A stretch of 11,760 bases of DNA from the IMG/VR virus record IMGVR_UViG_2737471850_000002, one strand, 5' to 3'. The translations under genes were made by a program, and so were the position numbers. The notes below the pieces were generated by a model that did not search any database, was not told the origin of the DNA, and was given only the letters and a program-made list of their open reading frames with translations. This DNA comes from a virus. Its lineage: Duplodnaviria; Heunggongvirae; Uroviricota; Caudoviricetes. Below, one piece after another: positions 2,845 to 6,789 of the stretch (positions within the stretch are counted from its first letter, which is position 1; the number at the start of each line of letters is the position of its first letter).

Positions 2845-3645
2845 ATGAAATTTCCAAAAACGCCCGTACAGGGGCGGGGCTTCGTTCGGCCTGAAAACCA
2901 GAATCTGCAAAATTTCGGCGAAATTATCCCGATTATTTCCGGCGTTATTGGCGGGAGTGAAACCACTATTGTTAGCGCCAGAGCGTTACATAAGGCGTTA
3001 GGTGTAGGGCGCGTTTTCCGTTCGTGGATCAAGGGGCGCATTGAAGAATACGGGTTCACGGAAGGCGTGGATTATGAGGTTGTTGAATATTTGAGCCGAC
3101 CCGATCCGGTGAGCGCAAAATCTCGCCAGCAAACCGCTCTTGAGTACATCATCACAGTGAACATGGCGAAAGAACTGGCGATGGTCGAACGTACCGAACA
3201 GGGCCGCGCCGTTCGCCAGTACTTTATCAAATGCGAGGAGGAGCTACACAAGGTTGCGCCTGTTCGTTCCGCAGCGTTACGCCGGGAACTGAAAGCCCGT
3301 ATCACAGTTGCCAGCTACTTTAAGCCAATGTGTGCCGCGCTGGAGGCGTACCGGGCTGAACTGGGTAAAAACACACTCCAGCACCACTACACCACGGAAG
3401 CGAGCATGCTGGCGCGTATCGTGCTGGGTGGCATGACTGCAAAACAGTGGGCACTGGCGAACGGCATTACAGGCGAACCACGCGACCACATGAGCACGTT
3501 GCAGCTTGAGCACCTTTCTTACCTTGAGCAGAGCAATATCACGCTGATTGAGTTAGGCCAGGACTACCACCAGCGGAAGGCTGAATTAATTCGTCTTTCG
3601 CAGCGTTGGTTAGCCCGTCGCATGGAGGAAAACAGCCATGTGTAA
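2845..3645 (+). CDS. Phage antirepressor-like protein, 266 aa, with an Rha/AntA-type N-terminal DNA-binding region
   Basis: ORF track 2845..3645; AGGAG SD 6 nt upstream; N-terminal segment (SETTIVSARALHKALGVGRVFRSWIKGRIEEYGFTEGVDYEVVE) resembles phage antirepressor / regulatory N-domains. Family assignment is from memory, not a search. Confidence 0.55.
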   Translation: MKFPKTPVQGRGFVRPENQNLQNFGEIIPIISGVIGGSETTIVSARALHKALGVGRVFRSWIKGRIEEYGFTEGVDYEVVEYLSRPDPVSAKSRQQTALEYIITVNMAKELAMVERTEQGRAVRQYFIKCEEELHKVAPVRSAALRRELKARITVASYFKPMCAALEAYRAELGKNTLQHHYTTEASMLARIVLGGMTAKQWALANGITGEPRDHMSTLQLEHLSYLEQSNITLIELGQDYHQRKAELIRLSQRWLARRMEENSHV

Positions 3646-3716
3646 CGCTCTGACCGTTACAAAAAGAGAAAGCGCCCCGTTGCCGGAGCGCCTTTGTGAA
3701 CGAATACCGCGCCTTA

Positions 3717-3866
3717 ATGACTGGTGGGGTACGCTACGACCTGAAAGGCCAGCCGTGCGGCGAGGTGACACCACAGGAACAACAGGACGCAGAAACGCGG
3801 CTGGTGGCGCTGAATGAGAAGCGCAAACGCCAGCGCCGGGTAGCAAAGGAGAAAACAGGCGCATGA
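3717..3866 (+). CDS. Possible small basic protein, 49 aa (MTGGVRYDLKGQPCGEVTPQEQQDAETRLVALNEKRKRQRRVAKEKTGA), whose stop overlaps the perC-like start (ATGA)
   Basis: Hand translation; falls below the 60-aa ORF-track cutoff; ATGA overlap with the downstream ATG 3863 suggests coupling, but no clear SD (a GTG at 3696 is an alternative start). A second short frame from 3638 to 3817 is also open in this GC-rich stretch. Confidence 0.25.
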   Translation: MTGGVRYDLKGQPCGEVTPQEQQDAETRLVALNEKRKRQRRVAKEKTGA

Positions 3867-4150
3867 TTCACGACAGCAAAGCGGAAGCACTGGAAGCGCG
3901 TGGCCTGTACCGGAGAGCGGCGGCGCGGTGGGCTGAGGTCATCATGCTGGCGAATGATGACAAGGCACGGGAACAGGCGGCAAAACGTCGCGCGGAATGT
4001 ATCCGCAAGGCAGCACGCCCACCAGCAAGGCAGGATAATTTCGGGGAGATGCGCGAAACCATCAGCCGGGCACATGCCGGGATGGGATTACATCAGCCCA
4101 ATGGTGAGGCATTCAGGAAATACCAAAAAAAGAACAATTGTAGTCAGTAA
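3863..4150 (+). CDS. PerC-family transcriptional activator (Pch/PerC-like), 95 aa
   Basis: N-terminal pattern SKAEALEARGLYRRAAARWAEVI is typical of the PerC family; AAGGAG SD at 3846-3851; ORF track 3863..4150. Confidence 0.75.
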   Translation: MIHDSKAEALEARGLYRRAAARWAEVIMLANDDKAREQAAKRRAECIRKAARPPARQDNFGEMRETISRAHAGMGLHQPNGEAFRKYQKKNNCSQ

Positions 4151-4284
4151 CAGAGGATGGGATTCTCTTGGTTTTTTGTTGATGCTTTCTGAGGAAATCT
4201 ACTACGTTGCTGAGCTGATGAATATTCAATTGCATCTGGGTTCCTGATAAGATTAATCTGAATATTTTCATTTGGAATAGGGAT

Positions 4285-5427
4285 ATGAATAAAACTTTAA
4301 TTGCAACATTAGTCGGTATAGTAATGTTAACCGGATGTGGGCCAGAAGAGTTAACTCCAGAACAGAAACAGGAAGTAGCTGCTCTTAAAGCTGAACTGTC
4401 GCAAACGGAAGGTGAAATATCAGCAGCTAAGGAAGTTGACCAGCAGTTTTCTGGTGGGTTGATAAAAAATCTGACAACAGCAAGACTGGAAATATTAGGA
4501 ACTAATAAAGCGCTTTTGGAACAGCGTATTAATGCTATTGAATCAGGTGCCAAAATTGATGTTGTTGTATCTGGAGTAAAACCTGATCCTGAGCTTGCGG
4601 CTTCAATTAAAACTGAAATTGACAGCTTAGATGCAAAAATCAACGAAGCCAAAGCTGATGCTCGTCAGTATAGTGGTGGTCTGATAAAGGTACTAAAATT
4701 ATCTACTGTTGCCACTGAAGAGCAGACCATGGCAATGTTGCAGCAAAAGTACCTCACAGCCAAGTATGGCCTCGCTGAAGTTAAGCTGGCATCAGTACAA
4801 GATAATGACGCAAAAAACAGTACTGAAACGGAAGTAACAGCCAAAAATTCCCAAGAGCAACTTCCTTTACTCCCGCCAGCGGATGGTCCGTTTGGCTTAG
4901 AAGCCGGTCTTACACAGAAAAACATCGAAGATATGATCGGTGCTAAGCTCAAGCCACTACCAGACAGTGTGAATCTGTATACTTCTGATAAATTACCGAA
5001 GCAAAACGCAGATTTTGAAATGTATGGTTTGTTGATCTCCCCGAAAGCTGGTTTATGTCAAATACGGGCTTTAGGAAAAAATATTGATACTGATAGCTAT
5101 GGATTGGCTCTTAAATCCAAGTTTGAAGAATTGAGTAATTCTTTAAGTTCTCTGTATGGAAAGGCTGATACTACAGACTTTTTGCTGGCTGGTTCAATTT
5201 GGAAAGATCCTCAGGACTGGATGAGGGGGCTAAACAAAAAAGAACGCTTCTTATCTGCCACATGGAAGGGAACAAAAGAAATACCATTAAAAAACAATAT
5301 TGATACTATATATATTGAGGCCAGAGCGAACAATTCCACTCAGGGATATGTCTATTTGCAGTACTCATTTACAAATGACGAAATTTGTCAGGCAGAAATT
5401 GAAGGGGCGAAAAAAAGTTCCCTTTAA
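4285..5427 (+). CDS. Lipoprotein, 380 aa, with two internal repeats of about 45 aa (Q-F/Y-SGGLIK...) and a C-terminal globular region
   Basis: Signal peptide with lipobox LTGC (MNKTLIATLVGIVMLTGC); internal repeats QQFSGGLIKNLTT... and RQYSGGLIKVLKL...; AT-rich codon use unlike the upstream genes. Confidence 0.75.
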   Translation: MNKTLIATLVGIVMLTGCGPEELTPEQKQEVAALKAELSQTEGEISAAKEVDQQFSGGLIKNLTTARLEILGTNKALLEQRINAIESGAKIDVVVSGVKPDPELAASIKTEIDSLDAKINEAKADARQYSGGLIKVLKLSTVATEEQTMAMLQQKYLTAKYGLAEVKLASVQDNDAKNSTETEVTAKNSQEQLPLLPPADGPFGLEAGLTQKNIEDMIGAKLKPLPDSVNLYTSDKLPKQNADFEMYGLLISPKAGLCQIRALGKNIDTDSYGLALKSKFEELSNSLSSLYGKADTTDFLLAGSIWKDPQDWMRGLNKKERFLSATWKGTKEIPLKNNIDTIYIEARANNSTQGYVYLQYSFTNDEICQAEIEGAKKSSL

Positions 5428-5439
5428 ACAATCCGTGCA

Positions 5440-5466
5440 AAGCCCCTTAGTAAGGGGCTTTTATAT
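5440..5466 (+). terminator. Rho-independent terminator downstream of the lipoprotein gene
   Basis: AAGCCCCT / AGGGGCTT stem with a short loop, followed by TTTTAT, 13 nt after the stop codon at 5425-5427. Confidence 0.7.
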
Positions 5467-5491
5467 ATTAATGTTCAACGGGGGGGATTAG

Positions 5492-5815
5492 ATGAAAGAT
5501 AATCTAGAAAAACTAATTGAAAATACTTTAAAAGATATTCTATTAGCTAATGCTGCTCTAACATTCATTTTTGCAATACCAATGGCTATTATCAGTAGGT
5601 ATGGGATGGGCATCACAATCTGGTTTATAACTGTGCTCATTGCACCTGCTCTGTGTGCAGTAGGTGCATGGCTTGTATCTCGAACATCCGGCCATGCTGA
5701 GGAGTTCTTTCATCGTCGGTGGGCTAAGCGAATTTATGTTTTTTATACTCTTGCGGCTGCCGAGTTTTTGCTTGTGTACTCAATCGCGCAAATAATGAAA
5801 AATCTGATGAAATAA
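5492..5815 (+). CDS. Small integral membrane protein, 107 aa, about 3 predicted transmembrane helices
   Basis: ORF track 5492..5815; G-rich SD (GGGGGGA) about 6 nt upstream; three hydrophobic segments of about 20 residues. Confidence 0.6.
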   Translation: MKDNLEKLIENTLKDILLANAALTFIFAIPMAIISRYGMGITIWFITVLIAPALCAVGAWLVSRTSGHAEEFFHRRWAKRIYVFYTLAAAEFLLVYSIAQIMKNLMK

Positions 5816-6022
5816 TTAACAAGTTATTATCATGGAGCTTGTGGCTGTTAACCTGCAGTGAGGCGACAATCGTGTATTTATAAAAACTTCCCCTTTTCAC
5901 TCCCCGCTGTTTCTTCTGCTATTGCCTTTATGTTTGCATGCACCAACATCTGCCATACCTTTGCAGAAAAATCAGAGCATTCAGTGCCGAAGGTTGGTTT
6001 ATTGATGCTTTTCGTTTCATTT

Positions 6023-6078
6023 ATTGCAATTGTCTCTGGTATCATTTCAATTTGTGCAATAATTGCAATAATTGCAAT
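6023..6078. promoter_or_regulatory. Three perfect copies of the 8-bp palindrome ATTGCAAT (6023-6030, 6062-6069, 6071-6078) just upstream of the 6103 gene; candidate operator array
   Basis: Seen directly; the last two copies are tandem with 9-bp periodicity (GCAATAATT GCAATAATT GCAATTATT); located 25-80 nt upstream of the ATG at 6103. Confidence 0.4.
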
Positions 6079-6102
6079 TATTGTCATTCAGAAGGGATCA
6101 TC

Positions 6103-6270
6103 ATGAAAAATCACGGAGTAAAGCCAGTTTTACTTTCCCGGAGGCAGATCGAAGCCCTGCAACGCATCCAGGACGAAGAGCGTCAGAAATCTGTGCTTGG
6201 TGTGGCACCGTCGATTCATGTTATCGCTCGGCAACTGATGGATAAGGCACTTAAAGAGGTGAGACTGTGA
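6103..6270 (+). CDS. Hypothetical small protein, 55 aa (MKNHGVKPVLLSRRQIEALQRIQDEERQKSVLGVAPSIHVIARQLMDKALKEVRL), a possible small DNA-binding regulator
   Basis: ATG 6103 with AAGGGA SD 6 nt upstream; stop overlaps the GTG start of the next ORF (GTGA); the upstream part of ORF-track frame 5938..6270 is low-complexity translation of the repeat region. Confidence 0.5.
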   Translation: MKNHGVKPVLLSRRQIEALQRIQDEERQKSVLGVAPSIHVIARQLMDKALKEVRL

Positions 6271-6527
6271 AATTAAATATCAGAGTGGATAAACGCCAGC
6301 TATGGCAGAAAAAAGAGAACAGCGAGGCATTCAGGGCGTTGCTGGTGGAAAATCTTCAGCACCGGTTCAGTGGAGAGTTGCCTGATGCTCTAGGGAAGAA
6401 ACTGGAATCCCTGACGGTGGAAATTGGCGATTATGGCTTTGTTGATGTTGAAAGCACGACTGCCAACACAGAAATCGTAAAACAGGTCGTCAATGATGTA
6501 ATGAAAACCACGCTTAACGGACGATGA
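6267..6527 (+). CDS. Hypothetical protein, 86 aa
   Basis: ORF track 6267..6527; GTG start overlapping the upstream stop; AAAGAGG SD about 7 nt upstream. Confidence 0.5.
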   Translation: MKLNIRVDKRQLWQKKENSEAFRALLVENLQHRFSGELPDALGKKLESLTVEIGDYGFVDVESTTANTEIVKQVVNDVMKTTLNGR

Positions 6528-6540
6528 CATACGGCAGCGT

Positions 6541-6789
6541 GTGCTGAATGCAGCCGGGGAATTAGGCTGGGAAGTGCACTTTCTTGATGATGGTGCTATC
6601 TGCCTTGAGGATGATGAAGGACAGCATTACTTTGAACAATACAATTTGCGGGGTAATGCCTGGCTGGCAATTCATATGCTGCGTTGTGAACTATGCTATG
6701 TTGCCAGCGATTGTCCCGATGAACAGGACACATGGAGTGAGGCAGGACTAAACGCCCTGGCTGAATGGGAAAAATCAGGCCATCAATGA
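6541..6789 (+). CDS. Hypothetical acidic protein, 82 aa
   Basis: ORF track 6541..6789 (GTG start, weak SD); the frame opens only at 6505, so the start is constrained; possible third gene of the small operon. Confidence 0.4.
   Translation: MLNAAGELGWEVHFLDDGAICLEDDEGQHYFEQYNLRGNAWLAIHMLRCELCYVASDCPDEQDTWSEAGLNALAEWEKSGHQ

Follow-up and report, generated by a model that had tools for sequence, protein, structure and literature searches.

A two-domain lipoprotein carried by lambdoid prophages and their PICI satellites, with a possible role in superinfection exclusion

The window analysed here, an 11,760-nt stretch of DNA, is a decayed E. coli phage-inducible chromosomal island (PICI), which agrees with the mobile-element setting assigned to it in an earlier interpretation made without database searches (hereafter the sequence-only reading). 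The replication genes of this island are gone, and ProQ and one downstream backbone gene are truncated. The features that concern us are a lipoprotein gene, the sequences that flank it and a second, smaller gene downstream:

4238-4284, + strand: conserved 5' leader, with a palindrome and the ribosome-binding region
4250-4259, + strand: 10-bp palindrome AGATTAATCT, which is GGATTAATCC in most relatives
4285-5427, + strand: lipoprotein gene, 380 aa
4285-4338, + strand: signal peptide and lipobox as read from the sequence (residues 1-18; L15-T16-G17-C18)
4339-4788, + strand: N-terminal module (residues 19-168), predicted to form two antiparallel coiled-coil hairpins
4375-4527, + strand: repeat 1, with an [FY]SGGLIK motif at the predicted hairpin turn
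4597-4749, + strand: repeat 2, with an [FY]SGGLIK motif at the predicted hairpin turn
4789-4866, + strand: linker (residues 169-194), variable and predicted to be disordered
4867-5427, + strand: C-terminal globular domain (residues 195-380 plus the stop codon)
5439-5472, + strand: intrinsic terminator, with a 10-bp G+C-rich stem and 3-nt loop (5439-5461) and a T-rich tail
5492-5815, + strand: membrane protein gene, 107 aa, predicted inner-membrane protein with two to three transmembrane helices

The window also carries a DUF4747 gene pair. Two genes in Tatumella (L032), coding for 297 and 190 aa, resembled this pair in size and were rejected as counterparts, as they were not homologous to it.

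The 380-aa and 107-aa ORFs are present as hypothetical proteins in RefSeq, in 113 of 5426 complete E. coli genomes. Comparison with orthologues indicates that both are real genes, with dN/dS of 0.05-0.10 for the lipoprotein and 0.17-0.20 for the 107-aa membrane protein; in the same genomes, identity was 88-93% for the former versus 68-73% for the latter. Within the lipoprotein, dN/dS was 0.02-0.07 in the N-terminal module and 0.1-0.4 in the linker.

The lipoprotein N-terminus (MNKTLIATLVGIVMLTGC) runs through M-L-T-G-C18 to G19-P20 and fits the lipobox pattern [LVI][ASTVI][GAS]C. In an alignment of 23 homologues G17, C18, G19 and P20 were invariant, which confirms the clean LTGC lipobox noticed earlier. 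A lipobox precedes the N-terminal module in 16 of 29 two-domain representatives and in 25 of 40 that have the N-terminal module only. Since Asp is not found at position +2, the outer membrane is predicted by the +2 rule. Retention in the inner membrane has been reported for Gly at +2 in reporter fusions, and the Gly at this position makes the predicted sorting compatible with either membrane.

The lipoprotein consists of two separable, widespread modules that have no family name. In the N-terminal module, residues 31-81 align with residues 105-155 (17 of 51 identical), with a local score of 76 against 27.5 +/- 5.4 in shuffled sequences, none of 500 of which reached 76. The motifs QFSGGLIK (54-61) and QYSGGLIK (128-135) are spaced by 74 residues. 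AlphaFold places helices at 25-54/59-86 and 102-126/133-161, with pLDDT of about 70-86. The two internal repeats of the sequence-only reading are therefore real and significant, but the Q-F/Y-SGGLIK motif, which was thought to begin each repeat, lies in its middle, at a hairpin turn in the AlphaFold prediction. The sole solved structure matched by the sequence of this module was a designed single-chain antiparallel coiled coil (E = 2e-4). Among the 150 best representatives, 40 had the N-terminal module without the C-terminal domain, and this module was also fused to at least five other types of C-terminal head, such as a peptidoglycan-binding domain in a Paracoccus protein and a VasI-like, type VI-associated domain in one relative. 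The linker was delimited by pLDDT below 50 at residues 164-191 and by unconserved alignment columns.

What had been described as a distinct C-terminal region proved to be a separate alpha/beta domain of about 185 aa in the AlphaFold model (pLDDT 96). It contains the motifs GPFGL, GLC, GSIW, ER and W, as well as two Cys residues, C258 and C368, that are invariant in the enterobacterial family. Its top structural match was a lipoprotein of a temperate Erwinia phage, followed by other phage lipoproteins. The best solved structures were all weak matches (Z <=6.8) and belonged to the group of Mog1/PsbP/DcrB-like alpha-beta-alpha sandwiches (PA1624, PsbP, DcrB, SciW, LpqN, MTC28, TiME and Mog1), suggesting that the modelled domain resembles the Mog1/PsbP/DcrB fold only distantly. 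A profile of the two modules matched 2858 representative clusters, and 81 of the best 150 contained the head domain alone. Stand-alone head domains were also encoded beside housekeeping genes, e.g. thrS, without a mobile-element context, and no conserved neighbours of such genes were found in the contexts inspected.

Neither protein had a meaningful family match in Pfam, NCBIfam, PHROGs or PADLOC, where no model matched either of them at E <= 0.1. NCBIfam matches to LpoB, a staphylococcal lipoprotein and Lpp were rejected because they covered only the signal peptide or coiled coil and fell far below curated cut-offs. PDB sequence searches yielded chance antibody matches in addition to the designed coiled coil, tblastn against 50,697 phage records gave no match, and a Foldseek search of the full-length model against the PDB returned nothing at E <= 0.001. 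The database entry of one homologue is labelled as a member of the SadB/YajI family, an assignment that no search backed. Thus, the earlier statement that no family could be assigned still holds. No homologue with a tested function was found in family, phage-record or literature searches, nothing was found in the literature on the protein accessions or on a PICI lipoprotein, and the literature searched contained no experiment on phage resistance conferred by the lipoprotein. The lipoprotein family is large, strongly conserved and well predicted structurally, yet none of the domain and defence catalogues searched contains it.

As a single gene between a conserved leader and a terminator, the lipoprotein gene forms a self-contained cassette of the moron type. 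The leader block was kept in 8 of 12 aligned upstream regions, whatever gene precedes it (PerC, primase or hydrolase), and was also detected in the PICI-type viral loci L081 and L071. A consensus promoter scan of positions 4150-4285 found no promoter. At the other end of the cassette, the terminator hairpin (5439-5461) is followed by UUUUAUAUAUU and has a folding energy of -14.4 kcal/mol (z = -3.06), which none of 200 shuffled sequences equalled; the strong terminator noted previously between the two genes is genuine. Terminator-like hairpins of unrelated sequence follow the lipoprotein stop codon in about 15 of 19 related loci (folds judged by eye). In prophage loci, terminator hairpins flank the lipoprotein gene on both sides, and the downstream one sits just ahead of the ribosome-binding site of the tape measure gene. 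The base composition also changes here, G+C being 0.39-0.42 across 4251-5500 versus 0.54-0.58 across 3001-4250. Of the features expected of a moron, its own terminator, a deviating base composition and insertion in a tail operon were observed for this gene.

Carriers of the lipoprotein gene are temperate lambdoid phages and their PICI satellites. In one group of loci (L089, L090 and L092-L095), it is preceded by genes for a major tail protein, a protein in the chaperone position, Doc, a CI-like repressor, Ant and again Ant, and a gene for a 1111-aa tape measure protein begins 65 nt after it, followed by gpM/L/K homologues. The tape measure gene is likewise the next gene in L087 (+72 nt), L085 (+82 nt), L101 (+145 nt) and L096, and only a tail assembly chaperone gene separates the two in L088/L034. 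Altogether, a tape measure gene lies within about 4.5 kb downstream in 26 of 35 non-E. coli-type viral loci, a count that includes L075, whose gene is tape-measure/transglycosylase-like. Three tape measure families occur downstream of the lipoprotein (phrog_24, phrog_1107 and phrog_1538). In a separate prophage lineage (L091, L099 and L102), an unrelated 273-aa membrane protein (phrog_8032) is encoded between the lipoprotein and the tape measure protein. In a clade with 41% identity (L098 and L103), the next gene codes for an endolysin and not for a tape measure protein.

Islands of the E. coli type, including the window, have no tape measure gene nearby. Their gene order is primase or RepA, ProQ, PerC and lipoprotein, and in L002-L006 and L033 the lipoprotein gene comes after the primase gene. 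The gene thus lies in the accessory region of a PICI, i.e., in the middle of an integrase/AlpA/primase island and adjoining its replication gene. This mid-element, primase-adjacent region of PICIs holds immune genes (He et al. 2024, PMC11364771). Some of the satellites that bear the lipoprotein gene own a full-length tape measure gene, which was unexpected.

The small membrane protein described downstream of the lipoprotein is present at 5492-5815. In its hydropathy profile, strongly hydrophobic stretches lie at about 16-34 and 39-62, and a third, weaker one at 81-101 contains Glu91; a basic loop at residues 63-80 suggests an N-in, C-out topology. The sequence-only reading regarded the two proteins as an envelope-located pair and made this idea dependent on conservation of the pairing. 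When co-occurrence was analyzed, the pairing was not conserved in the family as a whole. Every 107-aa gene found directly follows a lipoprotein gene (frameshifted in one case, L046), but homologous clusters numbered 17 for the 107-aa protein versus more than 320 for the lipoprotein, most of whose genes have no such neighbour. The 107-aa gene was missing in 14 of 16 full-length genomic loci and in all 35 non-E. coli-type viral loci. It occurred in E. coli, E. ruysiae, Klebsiella, Citrobacter, Edwardsiella and Yokenella, and was limited to the corresponding Escherichia/Klebsiella/Citrobacter/Edwardsiella/Yokenella sub-clade of the lipoprotein. In Yokenella the 107-aa gene is degraded and the lipoprotein gene intact, and in the Citrobacter contig (L046) the 107-aa gene is intact and the lipoprotein gene frameshifted. 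The lipoprotein gene also stands alone in decayed islands and, in Pantoea, at an ordinary site on the chromosome. Because the pairing is mostly absent and the lipoprotein gene can stand by itself, the lipoprotein appears to be autonomous and the membrane protein a lineage-specific add-on. The suggestion that the two genes are independently expressed is doubtful, since the 30 nt between the terminator and the next start codon are too few to hold a promoter. Transcripts of the 107-aa gene probably arise by read-through of the terminator or start at a promoter within the lipoprotein gene.

We tentatively propose that the lipoprotein is a periplasmic superinfection-exclusion protein that acts at genome injection; the localisation, the target and any anti-phage activity of the protein are what we infer, whereas its gene anatomy, its signals for export and lipidation, its domains, the purifying selection, the cassette organisation and the genomic slots are shown above. 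Superinfection exclusion had been suggested for the pair, and the suggestion is strengthened, purely by context, by the prophage slot before the tape measure gene and by the PICI immune region. That the gene is intact in decayed islands, with dN/dS of 0.05-0.10, argues that it is retained for the benefit of the host and not for element mobility. After export, the product would receive its lipid anchor at Cys18 and be held on the periplasmic side of a membrane. The double coiled-coil hairpin would serve as a stalk, followed by a flexible linker of about 26 residues, and the two would display, in the periplasm, an alpha/beta binding domain that contains a disulfide. The head of a lipoprotein made by a resident element could then bind some part of an incoming siphophage that is exposed to the periplasm. 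The prime suspect would be an ejected tail protein, whether the tape measure protein or another one, and an alternative target might be a conserved host factor needed by the tape measure protein. As a result, DNA would be kept from the cytoplasm while outer-membrane receptors would still function. The 107-aa protein would remain outside this core device, either as a second stacked envelope moron or as a lineage-specific helper.

The cassette structure, the prophage and satellite slots, the precedent of Ltp (see below) and the match of the head to a phage lipoprotein make exclusion at injection the likeliest of the explanations considered, without making it probable. Against this proposal, the proximity of tape measure genes may go back to a single ancient insertion into a permissive moron slot that was inherited with the tail module, with no functional link, and such adjacency is not seen in the E. 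coli-type islands or in the 41%-identity clade, where endolysin comes next. Purifying selection as strong as this across genera is unusual in an arms race with phage proteins and would fit a conserved host target better. In addition, the head domain alone is very widespread, and the Pantoea gene, which is full-length, occupies an ordinary chromosomal site. A less probable explanation is a lysogenic-conversion or envelope fitness factor like lambda Bor or Lom, unrelated to phage defence. The head would then bind a conserved envelope component (peptidoglycan, a transporter or a lipid-trafficking protein), with possible effects on serum resistance, stress tolerance or envelope homeostasis. Such a role would be consistent with very strong purifying selection across genera, with a huge head domain family that is often found at non-mobile chromosomal sites, with retention of an orphan gene in decayed islands, and with the Paracoccus fusion of the N-terminal module to a peptidoglycan-binding domain. 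Fold matches to Mog1/PsbP-type periplasmic or envelope proteins (DcrB, LpqN, MTC28, TiME and PA1624) point in the same direction, although all of them are weak (Z <=6.8). However, a fitness factor leaves unexplained why, in several divergent prophage lineages, a tape measure gene comes directly after the gene, and why the gene lies in the immune region of PICIs. An obligate two-gene envelope device, in which the lipoprotein and the 107-aa protein form a trans-periplasmic bridge or a sensor plus effector, seems improbable. The strict position of the 107-aa gene directly after the lipoprotein gene in six taxa would suit it, and the phrog_8032 protein in L091, L099 and L102 suggests that a membrane partner may recur; but most lipoprotein genes lack such a neighbour, a terminator separates the two genes, only a few residues of the 107-aa protein are predicted to be exposed to the periplasm, this protein evolves much faster than the lipoprotein, and either gene can decay without the other, as in Yokenella and L046.

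Masking of a receptor from the inner leaflet of the outer membrane, as by Cor or Llp, is quite unlikely. In this case, adsorption or receptor triggering would be blocked by binding to the periplasmic face of a receptor such as FhuA, LamB or TolC, or to a TonB/Tol component. Cor, a prophage exclusion protein, has been cited as inactivating FhuA (PMC3594210). The absence of Asp at +2 makes outer-membrane sorting probable, a conserved host receptor would suit the strong conservation, and the mobile-element, or moron, context is equal to that of exclusion at injection. On the other hand, the linkage to tape measure genes indicates a later step, and the lipoprotein is unlike Cor and Llp, having no PHROG, Pfam or phage tblastn match; Cor and Llp are about 60-80 aa and have neither stalk nor globular head. 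We also regard as improbable that the lipoprotein is an orphan immunity protein against a toxin acting in the periplasm (a type VI effector, a colicin-like bacteriocin or a tailocin component), carried by mobile elements as acquired interbacterial defence. The VasI-like, type VI-associated domain on the N-terminal module of one relative, and the single stalk with interchangeable heads, similar to a polymorphic repertoire, would be in line with immunity; however, an adjoining effector or toxin gene was seen in none of roughly 70 contexts inspected, a search for tandem paralogue arrays found none, and the structural scores are in the twilight zone. Very improbable, finally, is a role in the life cycle of the phage itself, as a spanin-like lysis component or as a periplasmic helper or regulator of its own tape measure protein. 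A periplasmic coiled coil does recall i-spanins, endolysin is the next gene in L098 and L103, and linkage to tape measure genes is tight. Yet the gene is conserved in satellites and at chromosomal sites that lack lysis and tail genes, its own terminators favour expression in the prophage state, and an exported lipoprotein cannot join tail assembly in the cytoplasm. A spanin identity as such was rejected, as the protein has no C-terminal transmembrane segment, no nested or partner spanin gene was found, and holin or endolysin neighbours are absent from the window and most loci, L098 and L103 alone having an adjacent endolysin gene.

To our knowledge, only a handful of entry blockers from temperate phages of Gram-negative bacteria have been described (Cor, Llp, gp15 and SieA), all of them small and unrelated, and passage of the tape measure protein across the periplasm is still poorly understood. 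If injection is indeed blocked by the lipoprotein, this step could be studied with a soluble, tractable periplasmic probe, and defence annotation would gain two new domain families. The lipoprotein could also help explain the phage host range of its carriers among clinical strains, which include E. coli O104:H4 and 55989, Klebsiella and Enterobacter. Should injection prove not to be blocked, the gene would still be an unusually conserved satellite cargo whose benefit to the host needs explaining. A broader idea, which we consider speculative and rather unlikely, is that the lipoprotein represents a new, widespread class of Gram-negative exclusion proteins, in which a lipid-anchored coiled-coil stalk would present interchangeable periplasmic heads that intercept the tape measure protein or a host co-factor, the gene travelling with tape measure genes between lambdoid prophages and PICIs.

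Several known systems share features with the lipoprotein. Tai systems (He et al. 2024) occupy the same position in PICIs, mid-element beside the primase gene, and phage 80 was reported to be Tai-positive (He et al., PMC11364771). However, Tai blocks tail assembly inside the cell, whereas the lipoprotein bears an export and lipidation signal. Cor (phi80, N15 and HK022) and Llp (T5) are also phage-encoded exclusion lipoproteins of Gram-negative bacteria, but they are much smaller and unrelated, and inactivate FhuA, i.e., they act at the receptor and not at the tape measure step. With regard to architecture, the coiled-coil stalk and globular head are reminiscent of the lipoproteins SadB/YajI, and the Mog1/PsbP/DcrB-like proteins that gave the best, if weak, solved-structure matches of the head include many periplasmic or envelope binding proteins.

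The lipoprotein shares a lipid anchor, a spacer and tandem helical repeats with Ltp of Streptococcus thermophilus phage TP-J34, and both are encoded by temperate elements. Ltp has no separate globular head, and its gene is located in the lysogeny module and not in the tail operon. It also differs in having a Gram-positive host and a length of about 140 aa, and it was not matched in PDB sequence searches or by Foldseek of the full model. Ltp mediates exclusion as a lipid-anchored protein that combines a spacer with a repeat domain, and it is reported to target the tape measure protein (PMC3952083). The tape measure link is experimental in the case of Ltp and consists of gene position in the case of the 380-aa lipoprotein. 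HK97 gp15 is a small, YebO-like integral inner-membrane protein; the lipoprotein has 380 aa and two domains and is predicted to be lipid-anchored in the periplasm. There is no sequence relationship between the two, as the lipoprotein matched neither YebO nor any other Pfam family. The inner-membrane product of HK97 gene 15 blocks genome injection in a tail-dependent manner (PMC3594210). The lipoprotein gene occupies the same prophage slot, in the tail operon between chaperone and tape measure genes, and resembles gp15 in being an independent cassette with its own terminator, in its predicted envelope location and in having chromosomal relatives outside prophages.

The lipoprotein and 107-aa genes were found intact in the window despite decay of the surrounding island, which is of the PICI type (phage-inducible chromosomal island, a phage satellite). 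Both ORFs have the boundaries assigned in a sequence-only reading, which had proposed an envelope-located pair.

Features of the window around the two genes
3705-3863: ProQ/FinO remnant, last 53 codons only
4250-4259: perfect 10-bp palindrome, AGATTAATCT, 26 nt upstream of the lipoprotein start codon
4285-5427, + strand: lipoprotein ORF, 380 aa
5439-5461: terminator hairpin, 10-bp stem, -14.4 kcal/mol (z = -3.06), then a U-rich tail
5492-5815, + strand: 107-aa ORF
6514-6786: 175-aa backbone gene cut to 91 codons, 193-aa gene missing

Of 5426 complete E. coli genomes, 113 carry the region in their chromosomal DNA at 99.5-99.8% identity, and their annotation calls both gene products "hypothetical protein". 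Intact E. coli relatives of the island occur at the tRNA-Thr adjoining proA or at a tRNA-Gly. They start with integrase, AlpA-type regulator, AntA and Icd, continue with RepA, D5 or DUF927 primase, then ProQ/FinO, PerC, the lipoprotein, the 107-aa protein and small backbone genes (55, 90, 175, 193 and 60 aa), and end in variable defence cargo (GapS1, SEFIR/TIR protein, ORC/CDC6-like protein or KAP NTPase). This order agrees with that of EcCIMP1, a PICI described from E. coli, whose integrase, AlpA, antirepressor, Ash, primase and PerC genes lie between proA and yagU (PMC11773190). Replication genes are absent from the window; the module that carries them between AntA and ProQ is missing entirely compared to E. 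coli UTAK-5, E. coli F9792 and E. ruysiae. At 9413-11065, the glycoside hydrolase family 15 gene on the flank is split into ORFs 9413-10249 and 10295-11065 and is probably a pseudogene, since it is a single 1611-nt gene in E. coli F9792. A 9-bp tandem repeat, TGCAATAAT, is present in 3.2 copies at 6055-6083, within overlapping small ORFs (5858-6106, + strand; 5878-6087, - strand); its copy number varies between strains, the relative in E. ruysiae (L021) being one unit shorter. Close to the AlpA gene, an AT-rich patch (G+C 0.39) also contains a 102-aa ORF (1283-1591, - strand) whose product has several hydrophobic segments; searches of Pfam, PADLOC and PHROGs assigned it to no family.

Related islands vary in the cargo at their 3′ end, a slot occupied by a SEFIR/TIR protein in Citrobacter (locus L045, 8305-9741), an ORC/CDC6-like protein plus its 229-aa partner in Edwardsiella (L048, 7518-9937), GapS1 in E. 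coli UTAK-5 (L001, 20018-21616) and a KAP-family NTPase in Klebsiella (L007, 8568-9938). In the window, this slot (7551-9043) holds genes for a 297-aa DUF4747 protein (Pfam E = 9.5e-98) and a 199-aa multi-pass membrane protein (phrog_20580), whose stop and start codons overlap; PADLOC did not recognise this pair. DUF4747 has been reported in lambda RexA and mycobacteriophage Sbash gp30, whose partners, RexB and gp31, are four-helix membrane proteins. By this analogy, the two genes look like a RexAB-type abortive-infection pair.

Consistent with the sequence-only reading, which could assign no family, neither the lipoprotein nor the 107-aa protein matched Pfam, NCBIfam, PHROGs or PADLOC, and sequence searches matched neither to a natural solved structure. 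The predicted lipobox was confirmed: the N-terminus reads MNKTLIATLVGIVMLTGC, and G17, C18, G19 and P20 are invariant in 23 homologues (59-89% identity). The two internal repeats are also real (residues 31-81 versus 105-155, 17/51 identical; alignment score 76 against 27.5 +/- 5.4 for shuffles, with 0/500 as high). QFSGGLIK and QYSGGLIK are spaced by 74 residues, and each of these motifs lies at the turn of a helical hairpin in the AlphaFold model, so the motif lies mid-repeat and does not begin the repeat as had been thought.

Full-length homologues (375-401 aa) are common in Enterobacterales (more than 320 clusters). A profile run against 1.8 billion representative proteins gave 2858 matches and revealed two separable modules, bearing out the distinct C-terminal region noted earlier. 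Among the best 150 of the 2858 representatives, 29 had both modules, 40 the N-terminal module (residues 19-168) only and 81 the C-terminal domain (195-380) only; the latter are mostly secreted proteins of ~200 aa with GPFGL directly after the signal peptide. At least five other C-terminal heads were found on the N-terminal module: a VasI-like domain, two unnamed types (with 12 and 10 representatives), one more type and the peptidoglycan-binding domain of a Paracoccus plasmid protein. That 432-aa protein (P. sediminicola conjugative plasmid p2, L051, 2998-4296) joins the hairpin module to a C-terminal PG_binding_1, and its gene adjoins a BREX cluster (WYL-domain protein, DUF1819, DUF1788 and BrxC annotations). 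Neither module, nor most of the fusion-partner domains, is present in Pfam. By sequence, the N-terminal module matched only one solved structure, a designed single-chain antiparallel coiled coil, in keeping with the hairpins predicted for it. The C-terminal domain has a high-confidence predicted fold (pLDDT 96, pTM 0.89), and its best match among the predicted viral structures of BFVD was a "lipoprotein" of temperate Erwinia phage Midgardsormr38 (E = 1.6e-6; TM 0.62-0.65 over 178 columns), followed by further phage lipoproteins. C258 and C368, invariant in the enterobacterial family, fit a disulfide bond in an exported domain. A natural 225-aa variant (L101, 5998-6675) keeps the lipobox and head and lacks almost the whole coiled-coil module; its gene is still directly upstream of a tape measure gene, suggesting that the stalk may be dispensable in some settings.

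The strong terminator claimed between the two genes was found, and by our reading of the folds, a terminator-like hairpin with a T-run follows the lipoprotein stop codon in about 15 of 19 loci, its sequence differing from locus to locus. A leader of ~50 nt is kept in 8 of 12 aligned loci independently of the upstream gene. Its palindrome is GGATTAATCC in relatives, and the window form is a symmetric double change that preserves the palindrome. The site might serve as the operator of some regulator, and PerC is encoded just upstream. The lipoprotein gene is AT-rich relative to its upstream neighbours, and in prophages it is flanked by terminator hairpins on both sides. Taken together, the own terminator, conserved leader, AT-richness and flanking terminators give it the anatomy of a phage moron, an independently transcribed addition to a phage genome.

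The proposed pairing did not hold across islands. Every 107-aa gene found, in a small family of 17 clusters, lies 60-70 nt 3′ of a lipoprotein gene (frameshifted in Citrobacter contig L046), and the 107-aa gene is absent from 14 of 16 full-length genomic loci, from all 35 viral loci outside the E. coli type and from the loci of Enterobacter hormaechei, Erwinia and Pantoea. Within the same genomes it also diverges faster than the lipoprotein (identity 73% versus 93% in Citrobacter, 68% versus 88% in Klebsiella, and 48% versus 81% in Yokenella, where the 107-aa gene is degraded). On these comparisons, the lipoprotein is autonomous and the small membrane protein a clade-specific addition. As for the three helices claimed for the latter, two strong hydrophobic segments were evident and the third was weaker; the basic loop at 63-80 points to an N-in, C-out topology that would expose very little of the protein to the periplasm. 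In one prophage lineage (L091, L099, L102; 7258-8079), an unrelated 273-aa membrane protein (phrog_8032) is encoded between the lipoprotein and tape measure genes, paralleling the 107-aa gene of E. coli, so a membrane companion may be a recurring option.

Viral contigs yielded 52 lipoprotein loci, 17 of the E. coli PICI type and 35 others. In 26 of these 35, a tail tape measure gene lies within ~4.5 kb downstream (counting L075, where it is a 626-aa tape-measure/transglycosylase-like gene), and in ten loci it follows immediately (gap 52-145 nt). A lineage of 47% identity has the order major tail protein, gene in chaperone position, Doc, CI-like repressor, two antirepressors, lipoprotein, tape measure and gpM/L/K homologues; in L034 and L088 a tail assembly chaperone separates the two genes. 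Three PHROG families (24, 1107 and 1538) account for the tape measure proteins. PICI-type islands of Enterobacter, Pantoea and Tatumella have the order primase, (PerC), lipoprotein, 55-aa gene, 108-aa gene and full-length tape measure. In such islands (L031, 9837-12410; L032, 9841-13449; L081, 7805-10801; L071-L082), the tape measure gene encodes 857-1202 aa (phrog_1538 or phrog_1107) and other tail genes are absent. A tape measure gene in a satellite looks unexpected, because EcCIMP1 was described as lacking phage-like structural genes (PMC11773190); it might act as a decoy or host-range device.

The reading with most support, at somewhat short of an even chance, is that the lipoprotein is a periplasmic, lipid-anchored superinfection-exclusion protein acting at genome injection, in which the coiled-coil stalk and flexible linker (169-194) would present a binding head in the periplasm. 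Gene anatomy and position fit the exclusion role first proposed from sequence, and the reading rests on these rather than on a homologue of tested function. Against it stands very strong purifying selection on the lipoprotein: dN/dS relative to orthologues in Klebsiella, Pseudenterobacter, Pseudescherichia, Kosakonia, Enterobacter and Citrobacter was 0.05-0.10 for the whole protein, 0.02-0.07 for the N-terminal module, 0.03-0.11 for the C-terminal domain and 0.1-0.4 for the linker; the 107-aa protein gave 0.17-0.20. Synonymous sites were saturated in most of these comparisons. Genes for the head domain alone abound at ordinary sites in chromosomes, the full-length Pantoea gene is chromosomal, and E. 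coli islands with the lipoprotein have no tape measure gene, all of which also pull away from exclusion.

An envelope fitness factor with no role in defence ranks first among the rivals, at perhaps half the probability of exclusion. A Cor-like receptor mask is less probable still, and we give slightly less weight again to an orphan immunity protein. An obligate two-gene device, considering the many lipoprotein loci without the 107-aa gene, is just as improbable as the latter, and a function in the phage life cycle is very unlikely. The exclusion reading is a concrete and easily testable hypothesis, and the function a candidate one.

The position of the lipoprotein gene has precedents in both kinds of element. 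In prophages, its slot ahead of the tape measure gene is that of HK97 gene 15, the first described moron, whose inner-membrane product stops genome injection in a manner that depends on the tail and leaves receptors unaffected (PMC3594210); in PICIs, the mid-island region adjoining the primase gene carries immune genes, as reported by He et al. (PMC11364771). Among Gram-positive systems, Ltp of phage TP-J34 sets a precedent: this exclusion protein has a lipid anchor, a spacer and a repeat domain, and is reported to target the tape measure protein (PMC3952083). A moron-encoded envelope protein of temperate elements is already known in kind; what is new is the protein itself, with two uncatalogued widespread domains and a modular stalk-and-head design, and the recurrent link of its gene, in prophages as well as satellites, to tape measure genes.
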